Positions 8,201 through 28,015 are shown, numbered from the stretch's first letter. The stretch: 48,388 nucleotides of DNA from Silvanigrellaceae bacterium (GCA_049423385.1 JBMSQQ010000014.1:1-48388); one strand, 5' to 3'. The notes: generated from the sequence alone by a model not told the origin. Program-made: numbers and translations.

Positions 8201-8988
8201 GGAACTTTCAACTCCAGGGAAATCGGACAGTGATCAGAGCCTTTGACCTCGGCATGGATGCCTGCTGCCAAGACGTTCTTCACAAGGCCCGGCGTAATAA
8301 AATGATAATCCAGACGCCATCCAATGTTTCTTTCCCGAATGCCAGGGCGTTGACTCCACCAGGTGTAGTGACCACCCCCCGCTTGAAACATGCGGAATGT
8401 GTCGACGTAACCATGTCCGATGAACTCGCTCATCCAGGATCGCTCTTCGGGCAGATATCCAGCGTTTTTTTCATTTTGTTTGGGATTCGCCAAATCAAGC
8501 GGAGTGTGGGCAATGTTGAAATCTCCGCCCACCACGACTTCAAATCCCTGCTTGCGCTTCGCTTCGAGAAATTCAAAGAATTTCCTGCAAAAATCGATTT
8601 TGTAGGGAAGCCTCAACGTGTCTCGCTGGGAATTCGGAAAATAGGCCGATGCGATGAACAGATTTCCAAGCTCAATTCCCAAAAACCGACCTTCAGAGTC
8701 GAATTCGTTCGCTCCCAAACCATATACAACGGACTGTCGCTCCACAGGCAAGCGAGAGTAAATGGCCACGCCGCTGTAGCCTTTCTTTTCTGCCGGCATC
8801 CAGAAGGAATTGTAGTCGAGGGGCGAAATCCACTCACCTTGCAGATCTTCCTTTGCACAACGCACTTCTTGCAGGAGAAGAACATCTGGCCTGGTTTCCT
8901 CGAGCCAGTTCATGAAGCCGTTCTTCACTGCCGCACGGATTCCATTCAAGTTCCAGGAAAAAATTCTCACCTTTTTTGTCACAATCAT
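8197..8988 (-). CDS. xth: Exodeoxyribonuclease III / AP endonuclease
   Basis: SWNLNGIRA, LLQEV, GYSGVA, GDFNIAH, YTWWS, GWRLDY and GSDHCP motifs. Confidence 0.96.
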   Translation of the reverse strand: MIVTKKVRIFSWNLNGIRAAVKNGFMNWLEETRPDVLLLQEVRCAKEDLQGEWISPLDYNSFWMPAEKKGYSGVAIYSRLPVERQSVVYGLGANEFDSEGRFLGIELGNLFIASAYFPNSQRDTLRLPYKIDFCRKFFEFLEAKRKQGFEVVVGGDFNIAHTPLDLANPKQNEKNAGYLPEERSWMSEFIGHGYVDTFRMFQAGGGHYTWWSQRPGIRERNIGWRLDYHFITPGLVKNVLAAGIHAEVKGSDHCPISLELKVP

Positions 8989-10385: not shown

Positions 10386-10391
10386 TTGGCT

Positions 10392-13004
10392 TTATTCCTC
10401 AACACCGTTTTCACCCGTTCCAATCACGCGGACTTTGGAATTCGGACTGAAAACCATAAATGCAGGACCACCATCGGACGTCAGGACTCCCTGTCCGTCT
10501 TTCCCGCAGGTACCAATGCTCCGGCAAAGTGTCGGCCCAAAAGCATCGACGGCCGAACGAAAACATTCTGTCGCAATTCCTGTAAAATTGGCTTCGCGCA
10601 TGAGAACCGGAGTTTGACCCTTTTTGAGATGTAGCACCCGGGCAACGTCCGCGCGAAATTCCAGGTTTGAGCAGCTGGCCGTGCCACCTTTCCAACCGCT
10701 CAAAAGAAGAACGCCCTTCGAACCGTCAAGATATCCATTTGCTTCCAAAGATTTTTGAACAACCTCGGGAGGAATATCGTCCCAAGCAATGGAGTCTTCG
10801 CCAACCCCGATGGTTTTCGATTTGGAAGGACAAACCCAAATACTGGTCATGCGGTTTAAAGACGGGTGCTGCAATGACTCGATGCGTGCACAACCATCGG
10901 GAGTACTGCCTGCCGTTCTGGCGGTGTGTCGTGTGTGAATGGCATCAATGAGCTTGCCATTGCGCACCAACAATTTTCGACGAGGCAAAACTCCCTCTGC
11001 GTCCACAGGAAGATATCCACAATTGTCGAGGGTGCCATCGATCAAGATATCAAGCCATTCCGGACCCACCTCAAGCTCCCGCATCCGGCCCGCCTCACCA
11101 AATCCCGAGGCGCAGGTTTGAATCAAGTCACCCTCCGCAGCGTGGCCAATGGCTTCATGCAGAATCAATCCCAACAAGTCTGCATCCACAGCGAGAAAAT
11201 CATACTCGGGTGCCTCCGGCACAAGTGCAGCAGGGAGCAGTGCCAGCGACTGTTGCGTCACCTTGGCAAAGTGTCGCAACAGGTCGGTCTTCAACTTTTC
11301 AGTCGAAGGAAAATGATTCTGCAAATATCGTCCATATGCAGTTCGCTTCTCACCATCTTCCGAACAGGTTGCATTTGTTGCCACACGACACACCTGGGTG
11401 ACAAAGGTCTGTTGTGAACTGTCGAGAAAATACTGCCAGCGATATTCCACTGCCATGTTGAGTCGACTTTTTACCGAATGAAGTCGTTCATCACGCTTGA
11501 GGTCATGATTCTGCTTGATGAGTCCACTGACCGTGCGAAAATCTTCGGCAAACCGAACCGAACTCCAGGGATGTTGACCCACGTGCGAAATCAGTTGTTC
11601 GCGGGATGCAAGCAGCCTTTCGCTTTTTTCTCCGGGGTCAGTTCCAATTTGCGCAAAGGCCAACGTTATGGCCTTGTAGATTTTTTCGCATGGATCAAAT
11701 CCAATCCCGGGCGTGCCCGTCTCCAAACCGGTCATACCTGCAACGACAGCCCGGATATGATAGGTCGTTGCTGCATGCACTTCAGGTGGACCCTCATCAC
11801 GTCCATTTGAGAAGGCTCGCGAGGCTGATTCACGTGTGCCTGCGAGAATGGATACGTCTTCCACCTCGTGATTCGGATGCTCAGAGGCAAATCGAGCTAC
11901 AGCTGTTTCAAGCGCGCGTGCCCACAATTTTGCGGGACTTCCGTTTGCATTCGATTCAAAGGCAAGATCAAACGTCGGACGAAAATTCTCCGGCAACAGG
12001 GGTTCCGCAAATGATCCTGAGAACGACCGGAAAACATCTGTCGTCGATAACAAATGACTCCTGTAGAGATCGAAAAACTGATCCAGAAGTTGTCGCGATG
12101 CAGAGGCAACAACGCTGCCCATCCTGAAGCGAGAATCACCCCGATGACCGTGGAGTGTGGTGAAAACGGCACCAGGCGTTTCGTCGAACAAGACCTGCAA
12201 TGCTGCAACATCGTATGGAGCCACCAGAGGATCAATCATCAGGTCCACAGCACCCATCAGTATACGCGTGTATCCGTACGCATCGCTGTGGGTTCGACAT
12301 TCACGGGAAACTTCGTTCAGCAGCGGCAAAAACGATTCAATTCCCCTGTATGCAAAAGTTTTTGGCGTCGAATAGGAAATCAAGGATTTCCGGAGAGCAT
12401 GCACATCGTTGGTTTTGCAAAATTTCCAGGATGCCTCCTGCTCGACAAAAAGTTCCGAGTATCGCGCTCCATTTCCTGAACTCGCAACGAAGACCTCGTT
12501 CAAGGCAGGAAGTGCGACGACTCCCAACACCGGCTTTCCCTTGTGAATCAAAGCCAGCAAAGTGGACCAGAGCGGAGTTTTGGAGAGAAAATTGATGGTC
12601 CCGTCGATCGGATCCAACAGCCAATAGGTGTCTTCATCGAGATTGAGCCTTCGCAAAGGCCGCTCGGAAAGTGCGTGCTCGTATGCATGCAGACCCGGCT
12701 CTGTTTTTTCCTTGTCCATGCTGTCGACCCGAGCCTGCTGATTTTCCGATGTCTCAAGGCTGCATTGAGCTCCGAATTCTTCGCCCACAAATCCGAAGCT
12801 GGGAGTCAGGTGAGCAAGTCGTTCGCGAGCAAGAAGTTCGATGGCCCTGTCTGCTTCGCTCACAAGACTTCCGTCAGCTTTTTGCTCAACCGCGAGTGCT
12901 TTTTTAAAAAATGACAAACCCAACAAACCAAGTTCTTGAACGACAGCCAAAGCACTCCGCTCGAGATCTGGCAATTGCCTACTGATTGAGCTTTTGGCTG
13001 ACAT
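10392..13004 (-). CDS. Fusion protein: inositol monophosphatase/HisN-like domain plus TldD metalloprotease
   Basis: N-half has KADGSLVSEAD, GEE, WLLDPIDGTINF and PYDVAA. C-half has HEAIGHAAEGD, DAEG, RMT and GTCGKDGQ. One uninterrupted ORF. Start set at ATG 13004 after GGAGG; the ORF is open from 13040. Confidence 0.85.
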   Translation of the reverse strand: MSAKSSISRQLPDLERSALAVVQELGLLGLSFFKKALAVEQKADGSLVSEADRAIELLARERLAHLTPSFGFVGEEFGAQCSLETSENQQARVDSMDKEKTEPGLHAYEHALSERPLRRLNLDEDTYWLLDPIDGTINFLSKTPLWSTLLALIHKGKPVLGVVALPALNEVFVASSGNGARYSELFVEQEASWKFCKTNDVHALRKSLISYSTPKTFAYRGIESFLPLLNEVSRECRTHSDAYGYTRILMGAVDLMIDPLVAPYDVAALQVLFDETPGAVFTTLHGHRGDSRFRMGSVVASASRQLLDQFFDLYRSHLLSTTDVFRSFSGSFAEPLLPENFRPTFDLAFESNANGSPAKLWARALETAVARFASEHPNHEVEDVSILAGTRESASRAFSNGRDEGPPEVHAATTYHIRAVVAGMTGLETGTPGIGFDPCEKIYKAITLAFAQIGTDPGEKSERLLASREQLISHVGQHPWSSVRFAEDFRTVSGLIKQNHDLKRDERLHSVKSRLNMAVEYRWQYFLDSSQQTFVTQVCRVATNATCSEDGEKRTAYGRYLQNHFPSTEKLKTDLLRHFAKVTQQSLALLPAALVPEAPEYDFLAVDADLLGLILHEAIGHAAEGDLIQTCASGFGEAGRMRELEVGPEWLDILIDGTLDNCGYLPVDAEGVLPRRKLLVRNGKLIDAIHTRHTARTAGSTPDGCARIESLQHPSLNRMTSIWVCPSKSKTIGVGEDSIAWDDIPPEVVQKSLEANGYLDGSKGVLLLSGWKGGTASCSNLEFRADVARVLHLKKGQTPVLMREANFTGIATECFRSAVDAFGPTLCRSIGTCGKDGQGVLTSDGGPAFMVFSPNSKVRVIGTGENGVEE

Positions 13005-15879: not shown

Positions 15880-16790
15880 TCCCACCCTTTTGGCTCAGAA
15901 CAGACAAGATTTCCAGAACCATCACTGCAGCACTTGCAGTTGTTGGCCTGCTTGCAATTGTCGTTGTTGCCATTGGAATCAAGGCATCCGCAGAAAACAG
16001 ATCCCAAAAACAAATCCGCGACTCGGCAGATGTTCAAAATATCAAACAAACGAAAAATGCGTCTGCTCTGGTTGAAAAAGAAAAGCGCTACGAAGGCAGC
16101 GCGGTCATCAGTGAATGGCAGGCGTTTGTTGTTTATCATCCTTCATCGGAAATAACCGAGGATTCGCTGTTTCTGGATTCGAAATACAGACCTTCTGGCG
16201 GCGACTCTTCAGACAAAACAAAAGCCGGCACGGACCATCCGCAAGGTATTGTTCAGGTGCTTGGAGCCCGCTCACTGCTTCCAATACTGCGCATGGCATT
16301 TGGCGACCAGGCCAGAGGAGCCGCAGCAGCAGAACGCGACCCATGGTTTTTCACCCATCCAACTTCATTTTTCAATCCACAACAGACGAAGAGTTTGTGC
16401 GGAAGAGACATTGATATTGAAGCGGATGAAGGATCGGATATCTGCTGGAAACCAAAACTTACGAACGAATATCTCGAGACTCTTACCGACTTTGCCGGAG
16501 ACGCCTGTCCTCAACTTGTCTTGAAGGAATCCAAACAGGACAATCGCTTCATGAACAAACTTATGCGTTCATCGACTTTCTCTCCGCAAGCACTCAGACA
16601 TTTCGCAATTCAGGCTCTACACATTCCGCAAGACAGGGCCAGCGATGAATGGATCAACCACATCATGAGCGAAAGCAAAAGGTCAATTGAAGCAGAATTG
16701 GAGAGTCAGAATCAGGAGGCAAGTGCGGAAGAATTGTACGCTCTCGCTTGTCAGGAGATGCTTTTGTCCAAAGAATTCTACTCCAGATAG
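15876..16790 (+). CDS. Hypothetical membrane-anchored protein, translationally coupled to the CxxCH gene
   Basis: ATGA overlap, N-terminal TM helix, C-terminal ACQEMLLSKEFY resembling the ends of DUF1553/1595-type domains. Confidence 0.55.
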   Translation: MIPPFWLRTDKISRTITAALAVVGLLAIVVVAIGIKASAENRSQKQIRDSADVQNIKQTKNASALVEKEKRYEGSAVISEWQAFVVYHPSSEITEDSLFLDSKYRPSGGDSSDKTKAGTDHPQGIVQVLGARSLLPILRMAFGDQARGAAAAERDPWFFTHPTSFFNPQQTKSLCGRDIDIEADEGSDICWKPKLTNEYLETLTDFAGDACPQLVLKESKQDNRFMNKLMRSSTFSPQALRHFAIQALHIPQDRASDEWINHIMSESKRSIEAELESQNQEASAEELYALACQEMLLSKEFYSR

Positions 16791-17476
16791 GGTTCCATCC
16801 TGTTTTTCAATTCTGCGATCGACAAAATATCATAATCAATGTTCAACTCATCCCTACGAAAAAAGAACACGGCATCCCGTTTATTGGCCGCATCCACTTC
16901 AAGGATCTGGGATGATCCTTGATTACAGGTGCTTTTCCACAAGCTGCCCAAGGACCACTCGCCGGCCGACTCCACCACTGCGGCCTGCTTGTGCTCAATG
17001 AGAGACATCAACGAAAAACCTTTGTCATGCGAAAGTTGTGCAAGGTCGTGTCGAAAAGGCGCGCAGCGAAGGCGCCATACGGTCATTCCACAGCGCATCA
17101 AACACTCAAGTTGTGAAACAGAAGGGTGTTCTCTTTTTCCGGAAAGTGAATCAATGAACTGAAGAGCCGCGCTTTCCGCATCACGACACGTGGTCTTTGA
17201 ATTCTCAAGAAAATCGAGAGCCAGCCTTGCCAACTCCCGAACACCAATCCAACGGGCAGCATTCGCGAAAAAGTTTTCAAGCCAGTAAAGAACGATATGG
17301 TACTGCGAATGCTGGTGATGATACGCAATTTTCGAAATCTGTTCATGCGCAGCAACGTGAATCAATCCGTCTGCCCAGTGATTTTTTCCTTCATTCCTCT
17401 GCTTGAATGCTTCAAAAATCAACTGCTCAAAAGCCAGATGCGATGATGTTTCTGCGATATTTTCCTGTTTTGTCAT
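16778..17476 (-). CDS. DUF2063-like (HvfC/BufC-type) partner of a DUF692 protein, divergent
   Basis: LENFFANAARWIGVRELARLALDFL...QFIDSL..LECLMR resembles the DUF2063 pattern L..FP.....G...F..LA..Y....F..FL. It starts 1 nt after the DUF692 stop. Confidence 0.5.
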   Translation of the reverse strand: MTKQENIAETSSHLAFEQLIFEAFKQRNEGKNHWADGLIHVAAHEQISKIAYHHQHSQYHIVLYWLENFFANAARWIGVRELARLALDFLENSKTTCRDAESAALQFIDSLSGKREHPSVSQLECLMRCGMTVWRLRCAPFRHDLAQLSHDKGFSLMSLIEHKQAAVVESAGEWSLGSLWKSTCNQGSSQILEVDAANKRDAVFFFRRDELNIDYDILSIAELKNRMEPYLE

Positions 17477-17477
17477 T

Positions 17478-18368
17478 TCAAAGCTCTCCCAATCTTTTCA
17501 GGGTGCTTTGCCCATTGATGATTTCGTTGACAAGAGATTCCTGCGAAACCAGGGGTTCAAACCACTTGAGGAAAATCGCCTTGTGTTCTCCGACAGGAAG
17601 TGCACGCAGCACATCCTCAAGAAGACCCCAGTGGGTCACAGACAAACGGCCGCACTCGGCATCAATCGCTCCATGATTTGAAACAGCCAGTGCACCAACA
17701 CGCACACTCACCACATGATCGAGTGGGAATTTTGCCAATTCGCTCTCGAAGTCCAAATCCTGATGAAAAAGGCTCACGTAATACGCCGGGATATCGAGGA
17801 GAACTTTAGACTGGGTTGCATCAACCAACCGTGCCCAGAATTCGGTTTCCGACAGGGTATCGAAGGAATATCGAAACATTGAAGACACGTTGGTCAAGGC
17901 AATTTCTCGGCCGAGCCAATCCTGCATCCGCCTCACATGATTCGCCACATGATTGACAAGCTCGAGCGTTCGCGGAACAGGCATGGGCACGTGCAAGGCG
18001 TGTCCGGGCTGGGAATCAAAACCCACAGCAAAGGTAACCCACCGCGGTGAAATTTCTGCGACACATTCCTTGATGCTCGTCAGGTACATTTCTGAAGGTT
18101 GAATCTTGGCTGCAAGGTTGGAGAGGCGAGAGAACAGAGAGACGTCGGTTTTCTGCGCAAAGTGTCTGGCCCAGGAGCGATCCACAGAACCTTTCCCCTG
18201 GCCAAGCAGGCGATCGAGGCACACTTCCAGTGCCGGCAGGTGACCAGCATTGGCAAAGGACTCACACAAGTGCGGCAGCAAGGGCAATCCCCATTTGTAG
18301 GACGCGGCATCGAAAGGTGTTCCCTTCAACGACCAGTCCATTCGTGGTGCAGCTCCAAAGTCGCTCAT
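17478..18368 (-). CDS. DUF692 / MNIO-fold protein with degenerate metal ligands
   Basis: Scaffold matches DUF692 (PRWV.., PMPVPRT, VRRMQDWLGREIAL.N, SETEFW, LLD, FPLDHV). Start at ATG 18368 after GGAGAGG; the ORF is open from 18383. Confidence 0.75.
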   Translation of the reverse strand: MSDFGAAPRMDWSLKGTPFDAASYKWGLPLLPHLCESFANAGHLPALEVCLDRLLGQGKGSVDRSWARHFAQKTDVSLFSRLSNLAAKIQPSEMYLTSIKECVAEISPRWVTFAVGFDSQPGHALHVPMPVPRTLELVNHVANHVRRMQDWLGREIALTNVSSMFRYSFDTLSETEFWARLVDATQSKVLLDIPAYYVSLFHQDLDFESELAKFPLDHVVSVRVGALAVSNHGAIDAECGRLSVTHWGLLEDVLRALPVGEHKAIFLKWFEPLVSQESLVNEIINGQSTLKRLGEL

Positions 18369-18510
18369 GTCCCTCTCCCGCATGGCACAAACTACATTTA
18401 TTCAATAATAGCCTGATGACCTTTCGATTTCCGACCCCACCATTTTGCACACAAGTGCACCCACCTGCGAACGCAAGTGCCAATTCTGCGGCAATAGTGA
18501 TTACTTTGAT

Positions 18511-18743: not shown

Positions 18744-19559
18744 ATGACCACGACCCAAGACGTTCTCAATCCTCAGCAAGTCGCCGAGCAGATCCGCAAG
18801 ACCTACAACCCCTCGATACTGGCCGGAAAGGTCGCGCTTGTGACGGGCGGTTCGCGCGGCATCGGGCGTTCGATTGCCGTCGCTTTGGGTTCCTGCGGCG
18901 CGCGTGTGGTTGTGAACTATGCCGGCAACGCCAGTGCCGCCCAAGAGACTGTTGCAGCCATCGAAGCTGTCGGCGGACAAGCCCGGGCCGTGCAATTCGA
19001 CGTTTCCAACAGCACTCAGGCAGCCGAAGCCATCAAGGCGCTCGAAAAGGAATTCGGCGGATTCGACATCCTGGTCAACAACGCTGGAGTTTCCAAAGAC
19101 AACCTCTTCATCAAAATGAAGGATGAAGAATGGGATGCGAACATCAACACCAACCTCAAAGGTTCATTTGTGTGTGCCCGCGCAGTGACCATGGGCATGA
19201 TGCGCAAGCGTGCAGGCAAGATCATCAACATCTCTTCGGTGATTGGCCTCACAGGCAACGTGGGTCAAGCAGCATATGCTGCGAGCAAGGCAGGCTTGCT
19301 GGGCCTCACCAAAAGTCTTGCCAAGGAACTCGCTTCGCGCAACATCCAGGTCAACACCATTTGCCCTGGCTACATTACAACCGACATGACCAGCGCCCAC
19401 GGCGACAAGTTGATTGAAAATGTGCTCAAGCAGATTCCCATGGAACGATTGGGTGACCCCATAGAGATTGCCCGCATGGCGGTGTTCTTTGCGAGCGACG
19501 CTTCCAACTACATCACCGGCCAGACCGTCGCTGTCGACGGTGGCATGACGATGATGTGA
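18744..19559 (+). CDS. fabG: 3-oxoacyl-ACP reductase
   Basis: [21 protein letters not shown] and VDGG motifs. Start ATG 18744 after GGAGGAG. Confidence 0.93.
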
Positions 19560-19565
19560 GTTGAT

Positions 19566-20411
19566 TCAAACCAACTCATTTTTTCTTCTGAAAAACAGAA
19601 CAACAAATCCCAACAGCAGAAGCACGATGGGAGGCAAAATTCTCTTTCCAGGAGGAACTTTGCTGCTTGCTGAAATCGTCTTGCTGTTTTGAGCAAGACG
19701 CCCGCCCGACTGCAAACCGCCCAAATGCGCAATGCTCCCGCAAGGCGCAAAAGTCCTGGTTTTCTCGCCGGCCACGGGCGGATACAAACTCAAGACGCCC
19801 GCCATATCATCCAGCCCCAGTGCAATGTCATCCCGTGGCTGCCAATAGCCCATAATCGCGCCCGGGTCGGAATGGTTGTGTCCCAGTCCCAAACAATGCC
19901 CCAGCTCATGCACCATCACAAAAACAAATGACGGAATCGAACTGATGTCCGTGCCCACCTGGATATCGCAATCACGCAGCCTGGACGTGTTCTTCTCGTC
20001 CACAACAGGAAAAGCGAGTCCGCTGGCAACTGTGGTTATCTTGGCAATTCCGATGGAAAACAGGTTGTCTTCCGAATCGATGATTCCCTTCCGTTCCTTG
20101 GCAACCTTCAGCTGAATCGACAGACCTGGAATATCGTTCCAATACGACATCGAACGTTGCACAAGGCTTTCAAAAACGGCGTCATCGGTGTCGTTTGCGT
20201 AGATGCCTTCCTCAAAAGAATCCTTGTCTGCAAAGACGGGTGCATCGGAGGTCAAGTAAAAATATTGTGTTCGTTCTTCAGCCGGATCCAAACGTGGTTT
20301 TTGGGGTGCCAAATAAACATAAGCAGACGCCGGAACCGGCGTCGCAAGCATCAAAAAAACAGCGGCCGTGAATGCCAAAAAGAATTTCACTGCACCCAAC
20401 CCGAATAACAT
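19566..20411 (-). CDS. Matrixin (M10-like metzincin) metalloprotease with C-terminal membrane anchor/sorting signal
   Basis: HELGHCLGLGH zinc motif and AIMG Met-turn. Signal peptide. C-terminal PCG, hydrophobic helix and RRK. Confidence 0.85.
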   Translation of the reverse strand: MLFGLGAVKFFLAFTAAVFLMLATPVPASAYVYLAPQKPRLDPAEERTQYFYLTSDAPVFADKDSFEEGIYANDTDDAVFESLVQRSMSYWNDIPGLSIQLKVAKERKGIIDSEDNLFSIGIAKITTVASGLAFPVVDEKNTSRLRDCDIQVGTDISSIPSFVFVMVHELGHCLGLGHNHSDPGAIMGYWQPRDDIALGLDDMAGVLSLYPPVAGEKTRTFAPCGSIAHLGGLQSGGRLAQNSKTISASSKVPPGKRILPPIVLLLLGFVVLFFRRKNELV

Positions 20412-20426
20412 TCAATGAGCTCAATA

Positions 20427-21629
20427 TTAGAACTGCCAACTTGCGGTCGAGCGTATCAGATTTTTGAGCCCACGCCGCGCCAAAACCCGCCCGGTTGACG
20501 TTTTCGCCCAATGACCCTCCACTCCGATGCGCGAACTTTCAAAGATTTTTATGTCAATCTTGGCAAATCCCCAGGATTCCGCCCCATCGGGTGCAGACAA
20601 ATATCCCGCGGAGGGTTCGAGCCTGCCATCCCAGAAAGGTCTTTGCAGTCGGACTCCAATAAGGGTTGATTCCCCGCGAAAGCGTTCGCTCGATTTCTCG
20701 CTCCACCACTCGCTCCAGAGCTCAAATGTCACCAAGGTATTCTTGGACACGGTTGCATCCATCGTTCCGTGAAAGACTGCCTGGCTGGCAAGCCCGCGTT
20801 CGGTGGCACCCTGGTCGGGAACAGCACGATTGGCGTGATGAGCAAACTCACCACGAAACACAAAATCACCAATCGATTGCGTCGCCGTCAGACCCAATGT
20901 GAACACCCGCGGCTCGTGGAGCTGAAGCTCAAAATCAGTGAGGGATTTTGGAACCAGAACAAATTGCGGAACGCGCTCCAGATGGGAGAGGATATATCCG
21001 TTCAAATCCCAACCGCTCTTCAGCAGACCACCTGCCTTGCCACCCACCTCGACATCCGAGAGCCAGACTCGCTCTCCCGGGGCCCTGATTGGGATTCCGT
21101 TGTAATCTTTTGCAACAGGAGTGCGCTCTGATTTGAAAGTCACAACCGTCTGAAAGATGGTGTTGTTGCCAAGGTACTGAAAATTTGCAGAGGGCACTGG
21201 AATTTTGATTGAATCGTCATCGGCGTAAAGAGGCTCACTCAAATCGCGCGGATTGAGAAAATCGACACCATCAAAAAAGGCGGAGTCGCCCCATGTGTAT
21301 TTTTGCCAACCCAATGCCGCGCTGGCACGATTTCCTTGCCACTGCAGATATGCCGCTTCGGTTTTGAATTCATAACGGCTCTGCGTCGAAACGAAATCGG
21401 CCTGGGTATCACTTCTGAAACGTGCCTGCGCATCGAACGAAAACTCATCACTCTTCCAAAGAGAATCTTTCCATTTGAACCCGAGCCCTGGTCGCAAATT
21501 CCACAACACGCGATCGGAAACAGAGCCTACAGTCTCGACCTCAGGCGTCAGCGACCACGATTTCAGGTCTGCCCGTGAAACGGAGGAAAAGCTCGTGCAC
21601 AACAGAATGGCTGCCTGATATCGACGCAA
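20427..21629 (-). CDS. Outer-membrane beta-barrel protein (DUF1302-like)
   Basis: Signal peptide, EAAYLQW..LGWQKYTWG..DFLNPRDL motif, alternating strands and C-terminal WQF. Next to a LolA-like gene. Confidence 0.7.
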   Translation of the reverse strand: MRRYQAAILLCTSFSSVSRADLKSWSLTPEVETVGSVSDRVLWNLRPGLGFKWKDSLWKSDEFSFDAQARFRSDTQADFVSTQSRYEFKTEAAYLQWQGNRASAALGWQKYTWGDSAFFDGVDFLNPRDLSEPLYADDDSIKIPVPSANFQYLGNNTIFQTVVTFKSERTPVAKDYNGIPIRAPGERVWLSDVEVGGKAGGLLKSGWDLNGYILSHLERVPQFVLVPKSLTDFELQLHEPRVFTLGLTATQSIGDFVFRGEFAHHANRAVPDQGATERGLASQAVFHGTMDATVSKNTLVTFELWSEWWSEKSSERFRGESTLIGVRLQRPFWDGRLEPSAGYLSAPDGAESWGFAKIDIKIFESSRIGVEGHWAKTSTGRVLARRGLKNLIRSTASWQF

Positions 21630-21641
21630 GAAATCACCCTG

Positions 21642-22394
21642 TCAGTTGAGCGAATTTTGATTGAATATTGCATCGGATGACTCTTTGGGTTCAAGCTTGA
21701 GAATGCGTATGACCGATGAATCTTCCTGCTTGTTCGCATCCTGGATGAGAATCTCGGTGGGTCGCACTGCACCGGCAATTTTTTTGTACTGACCAAACTG
21801 GCTCCTCTTGAGGACCATTCCTCCCAGGCTCAGATGCTCGGCCCTCAAGGGGCGAAACGAGTTCTTTTCAACCCAAACCCGAAGTTTGTCGTAAGTGAGT
21901 CCCTTCTTTTTTGCGGTCAGCAACAACTTCCATGACTTGCCGTCTTCAGACTCTTTTTTGGCCGAATAATCTCCCCACCACCGCATCCGGCTTACGTCTC
22001 CATTGGCGGCCTGGCCCGTGAGTTTTTGATTCAAGGCAACTCGAACCGAACGCTTGAGATTTGGAACATAGGCCCACATGTCTTCACCAACCATGACCAT
22101 GTTTCGACCCTTGTCGCGCGCAGGAGCAAGGGTATTGACCCTCGTCTTGTTGCGGCCCTTTGTGAAGACTTCGAGCTTTACCGGATCGCCCTGATCCGAG
22201 GAAACAACTTCCACTTCCATGAAATACGATTCCGCAGGACACCGCACATCATCTGCACGCCGAATAATGTCGTCGTCGGAAACACCAACCGCAAAGGAGG
22301 GAGTTGAAACACTGGAAACGGAAGCGCAGAGAACGCCTGATATGATTCTCCTCACCGTCAAGAACATCGCCGCTCTCCTCCGCCTCTGCGTCAT
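21642..22394 (-). CDS. Outer-membrane lipoprotein-sorting protein (LolA-like)
   Basis: APARDKGR..MWAYVPNLKRSVRV, YDKLRVWV and C-terminal SDAIFN, typical of LolA_like proteins. Signal peptide. Confidence 0.82.
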   Translation of the reverse strand: MTQRRRRAAMFLTVRRIISGVLCASVSSVSTPSFAVGVSDDDIIRRADDVRCPAESYFMEVEVVSSDQGDPVKLEVFTKGRNKTRVNTLAPARDKGRNMVMVGEDMWAYVPNLKRSVRVALNQKLTGQAANGDVSRMRWWGDYSAKKESEDGKSWKLLLTAKKKGLTYDKLRVWVEKNSFRPLRAEHLSLGGMVLKRSQFGQYKKIAGAVRPTEILIQDANKQEDSSVIRILKLEPKESSDAIFNQNSLN

Positions 22395-23479
22395 CTCTTT
22401 TGATAGACCTCAACATGGTACATCTGTGTTTTTTCGGCATCAATCAATGACCCGAATTTTTCCGTGACCCGCTCGAATCCAGCCATTTCCGTCTCATGGA
22501 TGACCCGCAAATAATATCGAACCACCACAAGTGCTTCGCGACTCAGGCCACTGCCCAGGCGCTTGAGGAACTCTCGGGCCAGAGTCTCGTCGAAATAGGA
22601 GGGCACATCGGAAATGGACACAAAATCAACAGGATCATCGGACAATCCGCTCACATGCTCGACAACGTTTGCTGCTTGATAAACAATCTCGCACTGGCGA
22701 ATTCCGGATTGAATCTTTTCATAGACACCTGCCTGGCATTCCACCGGATTGCCTTCATGAAACTGAATTGCCCCAAGAAGAGTCAGCTGAAGAAAAAAAT
22801 TCTCCCGTGGAAGTCCGATGGAAAAAATCCTGTCATAGGCTTCCTTGTAGAATTGCCGATGACTTCCAGGTGTGTTCTTTTTGGGGAAGTGTCCCTTGTA
22901 GAGAAGTGCATTGAAAAAAGATGAATTGCCAATCAAAAAAACCAGCAGATTCCAGCGCAGCGTCGGAAAGTCCTTGAGCATGAAATCATCGTGCTCGGCC
23001 TTCGTGGTTGAATTGAAAATGTCATGCGCTGCACTTCCAAGAACCAACCTGCAGGCTTGTGAAATCTTCGAAAATGTCTTCTCCCAACGGCCAATATAGA
23101 GAATTTTATTCCAATCCTGCGACTCAAACAGGCGGCTGAAAAAATCCATGCACTCAGCACTCACGTTCAGCCCTGAGAGAATCTGCTTGCGTTCCCCCGC
23201 TTGCATTTCAACTGGAGGATATCCCCAAAACCCTATAAATTGTTCACGCGGCAGATTGCGCGCACTTTCAATTCTCAATTCGGCGAGGAGCAACTGCTCC
23301 TTCGACAAATCAACACAGGTGAGCCGACGAGGATTTTTTGCGAAGAGCGGCAAAACACGTGCACCGCTACCGGCAACACAAAGCACATGCCTGCGTCCGT
23401 CCGGAAGAATTCCAAGTTCAAGTGAAGAATCCTCATTCGCCAATGAATAATTGAGCGTGTTGAAATAGGAATTGCTCAT
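22391..23479 (-). CDS. DUF3419 / BtaA-like SAM-dependent 3-amino-3-carboxypropyltransferase family protein
   Basis: LNYSLANED, CVAGSG, VDLSKEQL, GRWEK and SISDVPSY motifs. Confidence 0.75.
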   Translation of the reverse strand: MSNSYFNTLNYSLANEDSSLELGILPDGRRHVLCVAGSGARVLPLFAKNPRRLTCVDLSKEQLLLAELRIESARNLPREQFIGFWGYPPVEMQAGERKQILSGLNVSAECMDFFSRLFESQDWNKILYIGRWEKTFSKISQACRLVLGSAAHDIFNSTTKAEHDDFMLKDFPTLRWNLLVFLIGNSSFFNALLYKGHFPKKNTPGSHRQFYKEAYDRIFSIGLPRENFFLQLTLLGAIQFHEGNPVECQAGVYEKIQSGIRQCEIVYQAANVVEHVSGLSDDPVDFVSISDVPSYFDETLAREFLKRLGSGLSREALVVVRYYLRVIHETEMAGFERVTEKFGSLIDAEKTQMYHVEVYQKR

Positions 23480-25590
23480 ACCAATCTCAGCTTTCTACTC
23501 GATTTTGTGATTGGTGTTTTCCACTCCTTCAGCCTTTCGCGAGCCAACTCGCGGCAGCGTTCCAGCATTTCGTCGGTCAGGAATCCCTCATGTGTGCGAA
23601 TGCTCGACAAGCGCGCACCGTGTTTCAATCCAATTTGATATATTTCCTTGACCCGCTCCAACTGCAGCTGTCGAGACAGGGAGAAACTTTCATACCTGCC
23701 ATCCATGGTCAGCAGAACCGTCTCTGCAAGACATGCGTAAACCGTTGGCTTCTTCAATCCAATGTCGACATCCATCCTCACCGGGCCTGGAAGATCGATT
23801 TCACCACTTTCTATCACCAGCACGTCAGGCCTGCGTTTGGCTTCTTCGGGCCTGATGTCCAGAGGTCGTGAACAGTCGCAGATCACCGCTCCCGGCTTGA
23901 CCTTCATGATGTCGAGAACCTGCCCGCGCTGACTTGAGGTGGCAGTCACAATCAGGTCGGTGTCGGGCAAATCCTCATTGGGATCTGTTCTCACGATGAT
24001 TTCCGCTTGAGGAGCAAGTTCACTCAACTCATCCCTCAGCTCCAGCAGCTTGTCGGGGCGCGGCGCAACAATCACAACCGTGCTCGCAACCATGGCCAAA
24101 AGCTGCGCTGAAACGCGGCCGATGCTTCCCGTGGCGCCGACAACCATCACCTTCATGGGAACAATTCCATTCTTTCCAGGCTTCGCTATGAATCCCATTT
24201 TTTCGACCATTTCACGCGCTGCCCAAAGGGTTGCAGAAGCCGAATAGGAGTTGCCGGTTGTTACGGGAATCGGCGAACGCCGGGCGACAGTCACACCGGA
24301 ATCGCCAATGACTTTTGTGTAAGCACCAAGGCCTATCATCAGAGCACCACGTTTATGTGCATCTTCGGCAGCAGCCACAAGCTGGTTGTAAATGAAATTT
24401 TCATCCATGTTCAAAAGTGCTCGCGGAGTTGCACAAAGAGCATAGATGTCACAGATCACTTCCTGCCCGGTGCTCTCACTGCGGGCGCGGGTCAGTTGTC
24501 CGTATCGAAACACAGGGACGCGAGCCAGCATTTGCTCAGCACTTTTGACAACAGCTCGAGGCGAGTGCGACAACCACGACATTCCGGGTGTCAGAGCCAG
24601 GTGCTTCACGCTCAAGGGGTGAATGATGAAAGCACAGCGTCTCGGAACCCCCGAGGAAACAGTCTTTCGCCTGGGCTCGAGTCGCATGCCTTCGATCATT
24701 TCAAGCGCGTATTCAGAAAGGCTTGCGGCACTCTGCCGATTGACACGAATCTGATCAATCACGGCCATCAACAAGCCAAACGACCACAGCTGACTTGTGA
24801 TTTTCATCGAAGTGACGTTTGGAGCAAATTCGATAATCTGGGCTGGATTGAATCTCTCAATTTTTTCGCGCTGGCTCGGAGTCAGATAATCCGTGAAAAT
24901 CACCTTGCCCTCGAAAATCTCGGGAGAATCGACATTGGCCAGCAATGCCGAATATGTCACCAGGACGTCGCACTGCAGTATCCATTTCCGCAGCCAGGCA
25001 CGTGAGTTGTTTTTCATCCAACGTGAGAACACGTGCCGACCAGCAACAAAACGGGACGCCAGCATTGGCGAAATGGCGCGCATGAAGCCCTTGATTTGCC
25101 CCGGACCAGACAAGAGGCGCGGAATGCCCAGGAGGAACAGGGGATCTCCGGATTGGAGGATGGCGCCGAATTCAGTGAAGGTTTCAGCAAAGGGCGTATA
25201 AAGTGCAGTATGGAACAAAACCTTTTTGCCCTTGAAAAAATGCGGCTCGTCGCGGAGAAATTTGCGCAGGGCCCAATTCGCAAACAAGGTGCTGATCTCT
25301 ATTCCGGTGTACACCGGCGTTTTGTCTGCGGAACGGATCAGATCTCGTGTTGGATGATGCAGAACTTCCCTGCTTCCGAAAGAAGCTTTGTCGCGCACTC
25401 CGCTGAGAACGAAGGCATCAACCTCTCCGTCGAATTCGTGAATCAGGAAGTGTGCGGTTGAAAAATCCCAGCCAATTCTTTTTTCGGTCACTTCAAAACG
25501 AATCTCGTCGAGATCGAATTCTCCGCGTATGTCACTGCCGACATCGAGGAAATTGATGACGAGAATCCTGCGAATCTTGCGCATGCTCAT
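23476..25590 (-). CDS. Two-domain protein: N-terminal domain of unknown function plus acyl-ACP-reductase-like (COG5322) Rossmann domain
   Basis: AFIIHPL, GLGAYTK, TTGNSYS, GATGSIG, DCSRP and YACLAE (the Cys matches the catalytic Cys of fatty-aldehyde-generating acyl-ACP reductases). Confidence 0.72.
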   Translation of the reverse strand: MSMRKIRRILVINFLDVGSDIRGEFDLDEIRFEVTEKRIGWDFSTAHFLIHEFDGEVDAFVLSGVRDKASFGSREVLHHPTRDLIRSADKTPVYTGIEISTLFANWALRKFLRDEPHFFKGKKVLFHTALYTPFAETFTEFGAILQSGDPLFLLGIPRLLSGPGQIKGFMRAISPMLASRFVAGRHVFSRWMKNNSRAWLRKWILQCDVLVTYSALLANVDSPEIFEGKVIFTDYLTPSQREKIERFNPAQIIEFAPNVTSMKITSQLWSFGLLMAVIDQIRVNRQSAASLSEYALEMIEGMRLEPRRKTVSSGVPRRCAFIIHPLSVKHLALTPGMSWLSHSPRAVVKSAEQMLARVPVFRYGQLTRARSESTGQEVICDIYALCATPRALLNMDENFIYNQLVAAAEDAHKRGALMIGLGAYTKVIGDSGVTVARRSPIPVTTGNSYSASATLWAAREMVEKMGFIAKPGKNGIVPMKVMVVGATGSIGRVSAQLLAMVASTVVIVAPRPDKLLELRDELSELAPQAEIIVRTDPNEDLPDTDLIVTATSSQRGQVLDIMKVKPGAVICDCSRPLDIRPEEAKRRPDVLVIESGEIDLPGPVRMDVDIGLKKPTVYACLAETVLLTMDGRYESFSLSRQLQLERVKEIYQIGLKHGARLSSIRTHEGFLTDEMLERCRELARERLKEWKTPITKSSRKLRLV

Positions 25591-26537
25591 GCCACAAAAT
25601 CTCCTGCAGTGAGAATATGGAGTGCCTGATGATGCACCTTGAACCTCAACTCGCTTTCCAGCTCGAATGATTCACCATCCGCGAAAAGCAGGTTGCCCAT
25701 TCCATCCAGAGCCCTAATCACCATCTCACTCGATTTGACACGCTCCGACAGCATGGGTTCGCCCTTCATGCGCATTTTGGCCAGCGATGCGAGCAACTCA
25801 TAGGGGGTCTTGCCCTTCAACAGCAACACGTCGAAACGACCATCCATCGACCTTGCCTGGGGAGCCACAAGGAGATCTCCACCCAGTCTTGGCTGATTGC
25901 AAATGAACACATTGCTATAGAGACCAGAACGCTGTCCTTCATCTGTTTCGATTTCATATTTGCGCAGATAGGCCCTTCGTCCAACGATGGTTGCGGCGGC
26001 GAGTCCGGTGTAAATATTTGTTCCTGCGACGTGCGAGGCTTTCTTGAACATCGGTGAAATCCTGCGCATCGCGTTGAAGTCGCGGGTCAGGTATGAACCG
26101 ACACCCAACCCGCCAACCGTGGCAAAGTAAACATCGTTGCACTGAATGACGTCTGCACGACGCAGGACACGGCGGTTCAGACAGTGATAAATCGACAGCA
26201 AATCCGGTGTGAAACCCCAATGTGTTGCGAAATCGTTTGCAGTTCCAAGCGGCAAAACCACGAAGGGCCTCTGCGTTTCCACCAAGGTTGGCAAAGCACA
26301 TTGCAGCGTTCCATCACCTCCGGCGATGACCAAATCTTCACCTGTCGGCAGCGATCGAATCAGTTTTTGCAATTGAAAAACTGTCGCCGGCTCGTGAACC
26401 TTGGGCTCCAATTGCGGCAGGCCAATTTTGAGAGCTGCAAAGACGCGTTCACGATGAACACTCCCAGCAGAGCCGTTCACCACGAGATGGAATTCTCGTG
26501 GGCCCGATGTCTTGCCACCTTCCGATACCCCGGACAT
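25587..26537 (-). CDS. Diacylglycerol/lipid kinase family protein (YegS/DgkB-like)
   Basis: VNGSAG, GGDGT, PLGTANDFA, DGRFDV and ADGE motifs. Start ATG 26537 after GGAAGGA; the ORF is open from 26555. Confidence 0.88.
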   Translation of the reverse strand: MSGVSEGGKTSGPREFHLVVNGSAGSVHRERVFAALKIGLPQLEPKVHEPATVFQLQKLIRSLPTGEDLVIAGGDGTLQCALPTLVETQRPFVVLPLGTANDFATHWGFTPDLLSIYHCLNRRVLRRADVIQCNDVYFATVGGLGVGSYLTRDFNAMRRISPMFKKASHVAGTNIYTGLAAATIVGRRAYLRKYEIETDEGQRSGLYSNVFICNQPRLGGDLLVAPQARSMDGRFDVLLLKGKTPYELLASLAKMRMKGEPMLSERVKSSEMVIRALDGMGNLLFADGESFELESELRFKVHHQALHILTAGDFVA

Positions 26538-26650
26538 GAAACATCCTTCCGGCATTCGAGTAACGGAGGATTTTCGGAAAGAGGCTCTGAATTCTTTAAG
26601 GAAATTTATGGAATCAGACGGAAATTCCCAAGACCTTTATCAATTTTGAA

Positions 26651-28015
26651 TCAAGGCTCATTGGCCAGAAGCAAAGTTCCTGAAAACATTGTGTCGGAGT
26701 CCATTTGAGGGCTTCCGTGCAATGTCATCTTCAGCCCATCCACCCGCAATTTCGTGTTTGCTTCCGCCACACCCAGAAAAACGTCCTCGTTTTCCTCAAC
26801 ACACCAGCTGCAGGTGCCATAGACAAGCCGTCCTCCCGGACGAACGAGCGCGAGTGCATTGATTAAAAGTTGTTTCTGCAACTCCCAGAGACTCTTTCGA
26901 TCCGCTTCGCTTGCAATCCTCAGTCGTGCATCAGGATTTCTTCGCCAGGTACCCGAAGATGTACAGGGCGCATCCACCAATACCGCATCAAAACCCGATT
27001 GAATTGCTATCTCCTTGCCGAAGGCAGGAGCTTGTTTCCCGTCCCAAGCCAAGGTCCGAACGTTATGAAAGCCTGCACGCAGGCAGCGCCGGCGAACTTC
27101 GACGAGTTTATGCTCGCGAATATCGGATGCGTAGAGTGCACCCTTCCCTTTCAGGTCCGCAGCGATTGCAACCGATTTGCCACCACCTCCGGCACACGCG
27201 TCCCAAACTTTCTGACCCGGGCGCGCATCCACGGCGATTGAAATCTGCTGACTCGCCCAATCTTGAACCTCAAACAAGCCATCACGAAACGAACTCGCCT
27301 GGTAGACACCGAACGTTCCCGAGACCTTTGCACTGCGCCCATCGTCCTGCCAGTGAACCAACAGGTCATGAGATTTCAGGTCCTGATCCACTTTTTCCCT
27401 GGCAGCCACATTGTTCAACCGTATCCAGAGTGGTGGCCGCTCGTTTTGAAGGCGTAAAAAATCCAACAATTGCGCACAAGACCAATGGCTTTTCTCGACT
27501 CGCCTTTTCAGCGATGCAGACCAGACGGGAGGAATGCCATGTGCAATCAGCAAAAGTTGGTAATCAGTATCGTCCAGGTTTTCTTTCGCGAGATATTTTT
27601 TGAAAACAACATCATTCGACACGGAATGGGATGTGAATTGTTCCAAAAAGCTGTTCGAAGCTTGCATCAGGTGCACGGGCGAGAGATTGCGAACCATTGC
27701 CCATAGTTTTGTTTCAGTTGCCGCCTCGGAAGCAAACCTGTCCAGCAAATTTCTCTGATCGGATTCGGGCTTCTGAAGGAAAAGCTCGAAATCACTTGCG
27801 GCGAACGACTGAAAGGCAACCTTGGTCGCAAGTCTCGCCGAACAGAATAAAATGTTGCTGTAAAACCGTCTGTCCTGGCTCCCAAAACGCTTTTCGGCCC
27901 GCATGGCCTCGGCGAGCCACTTGTCCAGCTGCCGAGGCGCAACAGAATCGGTGTACTTCTCCCACAAACCCGCAGCTGTTTTGAGGCGATTCGCAAGGCG
28001 CGCATCAACGGTCAT
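26651..28015 (-). CDS. RsmB/NOP2-family RNA m5C methyltransferase
   Basis: FEVQD, DACAGGGGKS, DAPCTSSGTWRRNPD and YGTCS..EENE motifs. Confidence 0.92.
   Translation of the reverse strand: MTVDARLANRLKTAAGLWEKYTDSVAPRQLDKWLAEAMRAEKRFGSQDRRFYSNILFCSARLATKVAFQSFAASDFELFLQKPESDQRNLLDRFASEAATETKLWAMVRNLSPVHLMQASNSFLEQFTSHSVSNDVVFKKYLAKENLDDTDYQLLLIAHGIPPVWSASLKRRVEKSHWSCAQLLDFLRLQNERPPLWIRLNNVAAREKVDQDLKSHDLLVHWQDDGRSAKVSGTFGVYQASSFRDGLFEVQDWASQQISIAVDARPGQKVWDACAGGGGKSVAIAADLKGKGALYASDIREHKLVEVRRRCLRAGFHNVRTLAWDGKQAPAFGKEIAIQSGFDAVLVDAPCTSSGTWRRNPDARLRIASEADRKSLWELQKQLLINALALVRPGGRLVYGTCSWCVEENEDVFLGVAEANTKLRVDGLKMTLHGSPQMDSDTMFSGTLLLANEP

Follow-up and report, generated by a model that had tools for sequence, protein, structure and literature searches.

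The window analysed here is a stretch of 48,388 nt from a Silvanigrellaceae bacterium (GCA_049423385.1 JBMSQQ010000014.1, labelled C14), whose genome, G000, is 90.6% complete and has a G+C content of ~51%. ORF calling over the window revealed six co-oriented minus-strand open reading frames (ORFs) at 19566-26555, which had been predicted to form an operon for the synthesis and export of an undescribed lipid. These genes, and the spacer that precedes them, are as follows.

26556-26650, minus strand: spacer of 95 nt 5′ of the kinase gene, where the operon promoter is presumed to lie
25587-26555, minus strand: lipid kinase of the DgkB/YegS/BmrU type, 322 aa, soluble
23476-25590, minus strand: fusion protein, 704 aa
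22391-23479, minus strand: DUF3419 (BtaA-family) protein, 362 aa
21642-22394, minus strand: LolA_like carrier, 250 aa, periplasmic (signal peptide)
20427-21629, minus strand: predicted porin-like barrel, 400 aa, TTG start
19566-20411, minus strand: M10 (matrixin-type) zinc protease, 281 aa

A conserved operon on the minus strand

The six genes constitute one real operon. The junctions, read by script, consist of three 4-nt ATGA start/stop overlaps (25587-90, 23476-79 and 22391-94) and of two intergenic gaps of 12 nt (21630-21641) and 15 nt (20412-20426), exactly as the original prediction had placed them. The upstream neighbour, an rsmB-like gene, has its stop at 26651, 95 nt from the kinase gene, and the downstream neighbour, a convergent fabG, ends at 19559, 6 nt from the last stop codon of the operon. 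The domain assignments made beforehand (kinase, a domain like acyl-ACP reductase (AAR) and the N-terminal part of PigE, DUF3419, LolA_like, barrel and anchored M10) were borne out by Pfam and NCBIfam profile searches and, for the barrel, by a structure model.

The fusion had 779 relatives at E ≤0.001 among 8,000 candidates scored, those listed being nearly all ~700 aa long. A genome scan for it gave 318 encoding stretches, from which 80 loci were kept and grouped into 11 genus-like loci (≥71% identity), 51 loci of other Bdellovibrionota (Oligoflexia, Bacteriovoracaceae and Bdellovibrio, including complete B. bacteriovorus genomes) and 18 of Actinomycetota. The neighbours of the fusion, among them a FAR-type short-chain dehydrogenase/reductase (SDR), were counted by tblastn at E ≤1e-6, many of the loci being cut by contig ends, with these results (genus-like; other Bdellovibrionota; Actinomycetota):

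FAR-type SDR: 0/11; 43/51; 8/18
Lipid kinase beside the fusion: 9/11; 42/51; 0/18
DUF3419: 11/11; 39/51; 0/18
LolA_like carrier: 10/11; 24/51; 0/18
Barrel of the window type: 9/11; 1/51; 0/18
Barrel of the Bdellovibrio type: 0/11; 22/51; 0/18
M10 protease: 8/11; 1/51; 0/18

This arrangement is more than chance, the order being kept in genus-level relatives and the kinase-fusion-DUF3419-LolA core across Bdellovibrionota. In fact, the genus neighbourhood was syntenic throughout, from an alpha/beta hydrolase gene to an MNIO gene. In the other Bdellovibrionota the most constant neighbour of the fusion was the FAR-type SDR, and further genes recurred around it, namely a gene like PigC and phosphoenolpyruvate (PEP) synthase in 28/51 loci, AMP-binding/UbiA in 25/51, an ATP-binding cassette (ABC) gene in 25/51 and FtsX in 26/51. 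For example, Pfam annotation of the B. bacteriovorus s4 locus (L045) gave the order ABC, FtsX/MacB_PCD, kinase, NAD_binding_4 SDR, fusion, LolA_like, a 353-aa protein without family, and DUF3419. Similarly, a Bdellovibrionales metagenome-assembled genome (L024) carried kinase, SDR, fusion, DUF3419, Formyl_trans_N, hydrolase, AMP-binding, UbiA, PPDK_N with PEP-utilizers, ABC and FtsX. Conservation of the neighbourhood across Bdellovibrionota, on which the idea of a joint pathway depended, was thus observed both in the synteny and in the genome counts given below.

The last gene of the operon encodes the M10 protease, which matched PF00413 with 34.2 bits (cut-off 24) over only the C-terminal 56 model positions and carries the zinc motif HELGHCLGLGH (HExxHxxGxxH) at residues 168-178 (19878-19910), a signal peptide, and, near the C-terminus, a hydrophobic anchor with RRK after it. 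Since the gene was found outside the genus in only one of 51 loci, it is probably a genus-specific passenger and not part of the system, and the matrixin, which had been counted among the members of the pathway, would lose that place. The C-terminus of the protein (19566-19650), ...KRILPPIVLLLLGFVVLFFRRKNELV, combines two adjacent prolines with a hydrophobic helix and a cluster of basic residues, and resembles exosortase/myxosortase-type sorting signals; the sole NCBIfam match of the protein was a weak one (E 0.0028), to a myxosortase-dependent metalloprotease family.

Predicted reductase, kinase and head-group enzyme

The 704-aa fusion is composed of two halves, in the second of which lie the motifs expected of a reductase.

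24646-25590, minus strand: N-half, residues 1-315, predicted degenerate AAR-like two-lobed alpha/beta fold
23476-24633, minus strand: C-half, residues 320-704, predicted AAR/PigE-N-type thioester reductase domain
24118-24138, minus strand: Rossmann motif GATGSIG of the C-half
23731-23733, minus strand: codon of the predicted catalytic Cys620, in YACLAET

Residues 320-688 matched positions 3-362 of the 837 of the PigE model NF053554 with 158 bits, far below the cut-off of 850, and the AAR model TIGR04058 with 56.5 bits, also short of its cut-off of 449.7. No aminotransferase domain was found in the fusion by Pfam and NCBIfam, so the full-length reductase-aminotransferase architecture of PigE is absent. 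A profile built from 12 relatives retrieved PigE (4ppm, E 3e-32) and AAR (6jzq, E 3e-13) from the PDB. In this alignment Cys294 of AAR, described in the available text of one study as the nucleophile that forms the acyl-enzyme (10.1101/2024.10.28.620694), fell on C620, which was invariant in 12/12 aligned relatives. In the Rossmann motif, G485, A486, G488, I490 and G491 were invariant among the aligned relatives and T487 and S489 nearly so. The C-half is therefore predicted to be an AAR/PigE-N-type thioester reductase with a conserved catalytic Cys and a conserved NAD(P)-binding Rossmann motif, and the acyl-ACP-reductase-like assignment of the original prediction is strengthened by Cys620, by GATGSIG and by the actinobacterial copies, which adjoin FAR-type reductases and WS/DGAT.

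The N-half presented no Pfam family, no GxGxxG/A glycine-rich nucleotide motif, and a single Cys, which is unconserved. Its AlphaFold model, built from 43 sequences, reached a pLDDT of 88.9. When this model was compared by VIA-align with 48,161 chains, the top match was AAR (6jzq_A, Z 12.2, rmsd 5.4, 252 residues aligned, 9% identity), followed by the carmabin TAD (Z 11.1) and then by periplasmic binding proteins and glutamate dehydrogenases at ≤9.8. Foldseek returned weak matches only (glutamate dehydrogenase, DpaA and malic enzyme, TM ≤0.44), and hhalign of the two halves gave a probability of 0.6%, the sole aligned piece being TPVYTG against PVTTG. The model suggests that the N-half is a second AAR-like fold and not a different enzyme, and that the fusion consists of two AAR-like units in tandem, the first of them degenerate; as the halves share no significant sequence similarity, the duplication is read from the fold only. 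ESM Atlas look-alikes of the N-half (score 0.92, to be taken as a lead only) were stand-alone proteins of ~300 aa with the automatic name putative quinate 5-dehydrogenase, from Deinococcota, Chloroflexota and Armatimonadota; a free-protein form of the degenerate AAR-like unit may therefore exist as well. Compared with AAR (6jzq), the N-terminal domain of PigE (4ppm) and the carmabin TAD (9e4s), the fusion shares the fold family, Rossmann motif and catalytic Cys (C620/Cys294) in its C-half and the fold in its N-half, as seen above. It differs in presenting two AAR-like units in one chain, the first without Cys and nucleotide motif, and in lacking an ADO partner, an aminotransferase domain and a nonribosomal peptide synthetase (NRPS) context.

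The neighbours of the fusion in other lineages offer a view of its possible chemistry. In Actinomycetota, where ORFs were called with a third-position GC filter, the fusion, without kinase and DUF3419, follows a strong Male-sterility FAR (E 1e-49), and in Nostocoides (L070, 7271-12936) it stands between a WS/DGAT wax-ester synthase, upstream, and a Zn-alcohol dehydrogenase, downstream. The actinobacterial set is possibly a fatty-alcohol or wax module. Its neighbours in Nostocoides and Nocardioides (L071 and L081, ~7650-11000, and L070) also include a PAP2_3 phosphatase. Moreover, in a locus without the fusion (L091) the position of the kinase and reductase genes is taken by a 908-aa protein in which an HMG-CoA-reductase domain is fused to an EcKL/APH-type kinase. 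Because of the FAR and WS/DGAT neighbours and of this reductase-kinase fusion, the module is read as one that would reduce an acyl thioester and phosphorylate the resulting hydroxyl. FAR-type (Male sterility, NAD_binding_4) reductases take part in fatty alcohol, wax-ester and ether-lipid routes, such as those of WS/DGAT and of the myxobacterial ElbD. The present system resembles these routes in the constancy of the FAR-type SDR beside the fusion (43/51 and 8/18 loci) and in the WS/DGAT of L070, and differs from them in that a lipid kinase follows here, not an acyltransferase, and in that G000 is without a FAR-type gene.

The kinase matched Pfam DAGK_cat with 52.3 bits (cut-off 23.6) and YegS_C with 37.9 bits (cut-off 27), carries a GGDGT motif at residues 79-83 (26307-26321), and has BmrU and DgkB as its PDB relatives (E 3.5e-6). 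It fell below every NCBIfam lipid-kinase cut-off (TIGR00147, 63.2 against 118.65; PRK13057, 99.3 against 274), and with all these equivalogs missed the substrate is not readable from the family.

The DUF3419 protein matched PF11899 with 98.8 bits (cut-off 28.2), its residues 4-342 lying on model positions 4-359 of 385. A glycine-rich motif VAGSGA of the type that binds S-adenosylmethionine (SAM) was read by eye at residues 35-40 (23360-23377), followed by an acidic residue in ...CVDLS. No match was found in NCBIfam and no relative in the PDB, and its 560 relatives bear automatic names only, that of JGI being S-adenosylmethionine-diacylglycerol 3-amino-3-carboxypropyl transferase. The protein is a putative SAM-dependent 3-amino-3-carboxypropyl transferase. 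No fused (Rosetta-stone) forms of DUF3419 were found among longer proteins, which is weak evidence; a 664-aa ORF in L095 was rejected as such a fusion, being an upstream-start artefact that overlaps the AMP-UbiA gene.

BtaA and BtaB form the pathway for the betaine lipid DGTS in Rhodobacter, Agrobacterium and algae. The present protein is like BtaA in belonging to DUF3419/PF11899, with a glycine-rich SAM-type motif, in a lipid context, and no step other than SAM-dependent aminocarboxypropyl transfer to a lipid hydroxyl could be proposed here for introducing an amine. Unlike in the BtaA/BtaB pathway, DUF3419 is here tightly linked to PigC-like, AMP-binding-UbiA, reductase, kinase and export genes. 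Moreover, no BtaB-type methyltransferase adjoins it in the eight annotated loci (the window, L024, L045 and L091-L095), no genome-wide btaB search having been made. Instead, the loci carry a formyltransferase or a GNAT. Among the 51 loci of other Bdellovibrionota the formyltransferase was found in 13, the GNAT in 7 and both together in none, and in one variant (L091) a CN_hydrolase-domain protein replaces the capping enzyme. Formyl_trans_N enzymes formylate primary amines, and GNATs acylate amines. Given that the capping enzymes exclude one another and that no aminotransferase was seen in the annotated loci, DUF3419 is the only candidate for the source of the amine. This pattern suggests a free amine that is capped, not methylated, and gives indirect support to the aminocarboxypropyl transfer proposed beforehand. 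In L095 (G014:C260, 6843-7904, minus strand) an LPG_synthase_TM gene of the MprF flippase type adjoins the AMP-UbiA, DUF3419 and PigC-like core and is followed by a sigma-54 two-component pair; such a gene would fit a lipid with an amino-acid head group.

A second locus and the proposed export route

The window operon is half of a larger system, which in other Bdellovibrionota stands as a single locus. The rest of it was found in G000 at C4:46613-55883, where a GNAT gene, together with an AurF-like gene, is divergent from an 841-aa AMP-binding-UbiA fusion, followed by a 930-aa PigC/PEP-synthase-like protein, an ABC ATPase and an FtsX/LolCE-like permease. The 704-aa fusion was on a different contig from the PEP-synthase-like gene in 10/10 genus genomes searched, and in several genomes of other families (e.g. 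G038:C30, G046:C45 and G064:C149) these two genes and DUF3419 lay within ~12 kb. Consequently, the operon does not hold the entire pathway, since the AMP-binding-UbiA, PigC-like, GNAT and ABC/FtsX inner-membrane exporter genes lie on C4. The AurF-like di-iron protein of this region (C4:46613-56585, L090 6613-16585), of 326 aa, had no counterpart in the 80 related loci; the gene of a Bd3614-like deaminase stands directly 3′ of the FtsX gene.

The 930-aa protein was nearest, within NCBIfam, to PRK06241.2-2 (848 bits, cut-off 883). It is akin to PigC/RedH (E 4.5e-89 and 9.8e-99) and to rifamycin phosphotransferase, with scores far below the cut-offs (about 300 against 1300; RedH, 331.5 against 1350). 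The PigC/RedH condensing enzymes and rifampicin phosphotransferase are PEP-synthase-like ATP-dependent phosphotransferases. With these the protein shares a three-part architecture (PPDK_N, a central part and a PEP-utilizers swivel domain), and it differs from them in its ties to DUF3419 and the AMP-binding-UbiA enzyme and in lacking any pyrrole or rifamycin context. A likeness to OleC-type beta-lactone synthetases was seen in the AMP-binding enzyme (E 4e-69), and the UbiA domain attached to it reached 42 bits in Pfam, barely above the cut-off. UbiA-family transferases include archaeal DGGGP synthase and decaprenyl-phosphate phosphoribosyltransferase. The likeness to them resides in a UbiA membrane domain with D-x3-D-x3-D and RPLPRG, in the lipid context, and in the presence of enzymes potentially able to make a phosphorylated lipid that acts as donor or acceptor; on the side of difference stand the fusion to an adenylating domain, a second Asp-rich motif that is not evident, and loci without a prenyl-diphosphate synthase.

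The association of these genes was also assessed in a sample of 104 genomes from the same GTDB phylum, all with a completeness of 85% or more, with thresholds of E ≤1e-20 for the fusion, E ≤1e-80 for the PEP-synthase-like protein and E ≤1e-10 for DUF3419. The fusion was present in 24/104 genomes, the PigC/PEP-synthase-like protein in 40/104 and DUF3419 in 36/104, and all 24 fusion-positive genomes, G000 included, also carried the other two. DUF3419 and the PigC-like protein occurred together in 35 of the 104 genomes, DUF3419 alone in 1, the PigC-like protein alone in 5 and neither in 63. Four loci without the fusion were annotated. One of them, L094, is a contiguous block of DUF3419, ABC, FtsX, LolA_like, a 406-aa barrel, GNAT, PEP-synthase-like and AMP-binding/UbiA genes. 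Another, L091 (G084:C24, 8218-19437), is a variant of the core with a cytochrome P450, DUF3419, a PigC-like protein, an AMP-binding enzyme without UbiA and the CN_hydrolase-domain protein. The core of the system is composed of AMP-binding(-UbiA), PEP-synthase-like, DUF3419, an N-capping enzyme and a four-part export set, to which the kinase and reductase of the window are an accessory module.

Within this export set, the carrier of the window matched LolA_like PF17131 with 121 bits (cut-off 30) and canonical LolA (TIGR00547) with only 19 bits against a cut-off of 112; it is accordingly a LolA-fold protein and not LolA itself. It is 55% identical to the carrier of L094, which follows ABC-FtsX. 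The 400-aa protein encoded next had no Pfam or NCBIfam family. Its model was all-beta with a moderate pLDDT of 68.6, Foldseek matched it to the OmpU, OmpF and OccD porins (probability 1.0, TM 0.45-0.55), and the chain has a signal-like N-terminal stretch and an aromatic C-terminus (...SWQF), features which argue for a porin-like outer-membrane beta-barrel. It is homologous to the 406-aa protein that comes after LolA_like in L094 (hhalign 98.1%, E 8e-14), and a weak match linked it to the Bdellovibrio orf353 (hhalign 47%, E 2e-4), so that the equivalence of the window and Bdellovibrio barrels is drawn mainly from their position. A predicted complex of barrel and carrier lent weak support to their pairing, with a score of 0.37, the best of 3 controls obtaining 0.00, and with runs that agreed on at least 9% of contacts and partner pLDDT of at least 82; the mark set for such predictions was reached by 116/157 solved complexes and 2/215 mismatches, and only 18 of those 157 scored ≤0.60.

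The best NCBIfam model of the C4 permease was lolCE, with 105 bits against a cut-off of 362. A better lolCE-like gene, with 224.9 bits, stands on C7 and is the more likely housekeeping Lol system. LolA-like carriers are also known from aryl-polyene and flexirubin clusters. The system has in common with LolCDE-LolA-LolB and with these clusters an ABC ATPase, an FtsX/MacB-type permease, a LolA-fold carrier and an outer-membrane acceptor encoded with biosynthetic genes. It departs from LolCDE-LolA-LolB in that the canonical LolA and LolCE models were not reached, in that the acceptor would be a porin-like barrel of 400 aa and not LolB, and in the six such carriers of the genome. Lol-like export sets are expanded in G000: the five other LolA_like genes are on C55, C3, C119, C108 and C143, several of them beside ABC/FtsX permeases, and on C55 an M10 paralogue (37% identity) occurs together with LolA_like and ABC.

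Two further neighbourhoods of the operon were annotated. Upstream, the RsmB/F-type methyltransferase (454 aa, 26651-28015, minus strand) missed all NCBIfam RsmB equivalog cut-offs (best 158.8 against 319), and its gene is syntenic with der and the operon across the genus. On the other side, an MNIO gene (17478-18383, minus strand) encodes a maturase for ribosomally synthesised and post-translationally modified peptides of the MbnB/TglH/ChrH family, BufB-like with 100.6 bits against a cut-off of 310, and was present in 7/11 genus-like loci. It is followed by a 232-aa ORF without family (the pair lying within 16778-18383, minus strand), and the pair is syntenic in the genus. No recognisable precursor ORF was found upstream of the MNIO gene, and neither the small ORFs near it nor the 232-aa ORF had a Pfam family.

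Proposed pathway and competing explanations

Taken together, these observations make it fairly probable, although every step is deduced from comparison, that the six-gene operon supplies a larger conserved system of lipid synthesis and export in Bdellovibrionota with its reduction and phosphorylation module, its head-group transferase and its transport leg from periplasm to outer membrane. In the proposed mechanism, a fatty acyl thioester would be loaded on Cys620 of the fusion C-half and converted, at the expense of NAD(P)H, to an aldehyde, which in relatives would be reduced to an alcohol by the FAR-type SDR, a gene not found in G000. The resulting lipid hydroxyl would be phosphorylated by the DgkB/YegS-type kinase, and the UbiA-type membrane enzyme and the PigC-like ATP-dependent phosphotransferase would couple the phosphorylated unit to the rest of the lipid. 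The DUF3419 enzyme would then supply a 3-amino-3-carboxypropyl (homoserine-type) head group from SAM, the free amine of which would be capped by the GNAT in G000 and by the formyltransferase in other lineages. Finally, the product would be extracted from the inner membrane by ABC/FtsX, carried across the periplasm by the LolA_like protein and received by the porin-like barrel. The N-half of the fusion may serve as a non-catalytic AAR-like scaffold, and the M10 gene would be a passenger.

Each part of the system is in a known superfamily (BtaA, AAR/PigE-N, DgkB/YegS, PigC/PEP synthase, UbiA, LolCDE/LolA and porins), and no family-defining equivalog score was reached. The combination matches no pathway known to us. 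No published description of the gene set was found in full-text searches of the literature, and the DUF3419 literature, in the portions available, deals with algae, fungi and a cyanobacterial lactylate cluster and holds nothing on it. The original prediction of a lipid-type synthesis and export unit not yet described is supported by the conserved gene set, and its reductase and the co-occurrence of its genes also stood. The operon is not the entire pathway, the matrixin is probably not a member of it, and the sphingoid lipid that had been offered as one possible product did not stand: nothing points to the latter, and the sphingolipid reading was rejected since no serine-palmitoyltransferase-like gene was found in any annotated locus.

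Several observations weigh against this interpretation. The fusion is missing from part of the system's range, 11 genomes having DUF3419 and the PigC-like protein without it; the kinase and reductase module of the window is therefore accessory, and the idea of an alcohol phosphate does not belong to the core chemistry. The genomes counted are, besides, kin, so the co-occurrence figures overstate independence. In G000, 90.6% complete, tblastn found no FAR-type gene, and a PF07993 search matched only a GDP-mannose-dehydratase-type sugar-nucleotide gene beside rmlD, which leaves the aldehyde-to-alcohol step without a candidate; this genome would have to rely on a different reductase or put the aldehyde to use as it is. 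The loci showed no acyl carrier protein, no enzyme of the glycerol backbone and no acyltransferase. Of the motifs of the UbiA domain, the first Asp-rich one (D-x3-D-x3-D) and RPLPRG were readable by eye, with no clear second Asp-rich motif, and the DUF3419 protein, whose 98.8 bits mark it as divergent within its family, could be a methyltransferase-like enzyme instead. On the export side, six LolA_like genes (several with an FtsX permease gene next to them) and several FtsX sets are present in G000, so it is the synteny of relatives only that pairs the window carrier with the C4 exporter. Finally, consensus scans of 19300-26900 found 2 promoter-like sites against a shuffle mean of 4.3, with no sigma-70-like site in the 95-nt spacer, and 14 terminator-like sites against a shuffle mean of 8.9, none at the operon ends. 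As no promoter or terminator signal rose above the shuffles, the operon boundaries are set by gene spacing only.

Among the alternatives, the one that survives best, and which is nevertheless unlikely, is that the product would be a hydrophobic specialised metabolite destined for secretion, for example a surfactant, a signal or an antibiotic against prey or competitors, and that the Lol-like set would serve its efflux and not a structural lipid. The nearest named relatives of two of the enzymes are indeed involved in prodigiosin biosynthesis (the N-part of PigE, 4ppm, and PigC/RedH), the AMP-binding enzyme is OleC-like, a P450 is present in the variant L091, and the spread is patchy, the genes occurring in 24 to 40 of the 104 genomes and the fusion in 0/12 genomes of genus g5, of the same family as G000. 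However, the Pig-like scores are far under their cut-offs (158 against 850, and those of the PigC-like protein given above), the annotated loci hold no PigE aminotransferase domain and no pyrrole-building, polyketide synthase or NRPS genes, and the LolA_like/barrel pair, together with the MprF-type flippase domain in L095, fits the handling of a membrane lipid better. The metabolite and envelope-lipid readings overlap, as a secreted lipid satisfies both.

The host lineage bears on a related question. Silvanigrella species are red, and cultured Silvanigrella genomes have, in the part of the description available, a G+C content of 29-32% (PMC7386786). At ~51%, the host is not Silvanigrella proper, and a pigment was rejected as the product on this difference and on the 0/12 genus g5 genomes with the fusion. 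The same source, as far as available, reports one unidentified aminolipid in S. paludirubra (PMC7386786), from which no link to the system is drawn, since none of those 12 genomes carries the fusion.

Ordinary DGTS synthesis would require the DUF3419 protein to act as BtaA on diacylglycerol, with BtaB elsewhere in the genome and the neighbours unrelated. The Pfam family, which is that of BtaA, and the JGI name of the relatives agree with this, but it is made very improbable by the surroundings of the gene: no methyltransferase gene stands beside it in the window or in the seven other annotated loci (with no genome-wide search for btaB), the rsmB-like gene upstream in the window being of the rRNA methyltransferase type, the capping enzymes are formyl- or acyl-transferases, and DUF3419 tracks the PigC-like protein in 35/36 genomes, often adjacent to it.

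There is likewise very little reason to regard the LolA_like, barrel, ABC and FtsX proteins as a route for proteins or lipoproteins, perhaps for the anchored M10, with the enzymes modifying a protein. The M10 gene, which closes the operon and encodes a C-terminus like a sorting signal, is absent from 50/51 non-genus loci that keep the rest, although a paralogue accompanies LolA_like and ABC on C55. The FtsX permease has lolCE as its best NCBIfam model, but the lolCE and LolA equivalog cut-offs are far off (105 against 362 and 19 against 112) and C7 has the better lolCE-like gene. Moreover, lipids are the substrates of the fatty-acyl reductase, FAR and lipid-kinase families. That the six genes are chance neighbours of unrelated functions, which the lack of promoter and terminator signals above shuffles would allow, is hardly credible in view of the three 4-nt start/stop overlaps and is contradicted by the synteny counts, the same neighbours recurring across Bdellovibrionota in rearranged orders.

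A more specific form of the lipid synthesis and export reading, which is a long shot, would place in Bdellovibrionota, including B. bacteriovorus, a novel class of outer-membrane lipid. In this lipid a fatty alcohol phosphate, made by the AAR-like reductase, FAR and the DgkB-type kinase and activated by the PEP-synthase-like enzyme, would be joined by UbiA via an ether or phospho link, would bear an N-formyl or N-acyl homoserine head from SAM, and would have its own Lol-like route of ABC, carrier and barrel. It might represent a saturated-alkyl counterpart of archaeal prenyl-ether chemistry.

If the proposed system is true, a phylum of predatory and free-living bacteria would possess a dedicated pathway and transport route for a novel envelope lipid. 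Roles would be gained by DUF3419 outside DGTS, by a tandem AAR-like reductase, by PigC-like enzymes outside pigments and by AMP-binding-UbiA fusions, and the transport route would be a second example, beside Lol, of hydrophobic cargo crossing the periplasm. The presence of the system in the cultivable B. bacteriovorus makes it directly testable, and the composition of the predator outer membrane bears on the avoidance of self-attack and on fusion with prey envelopes.

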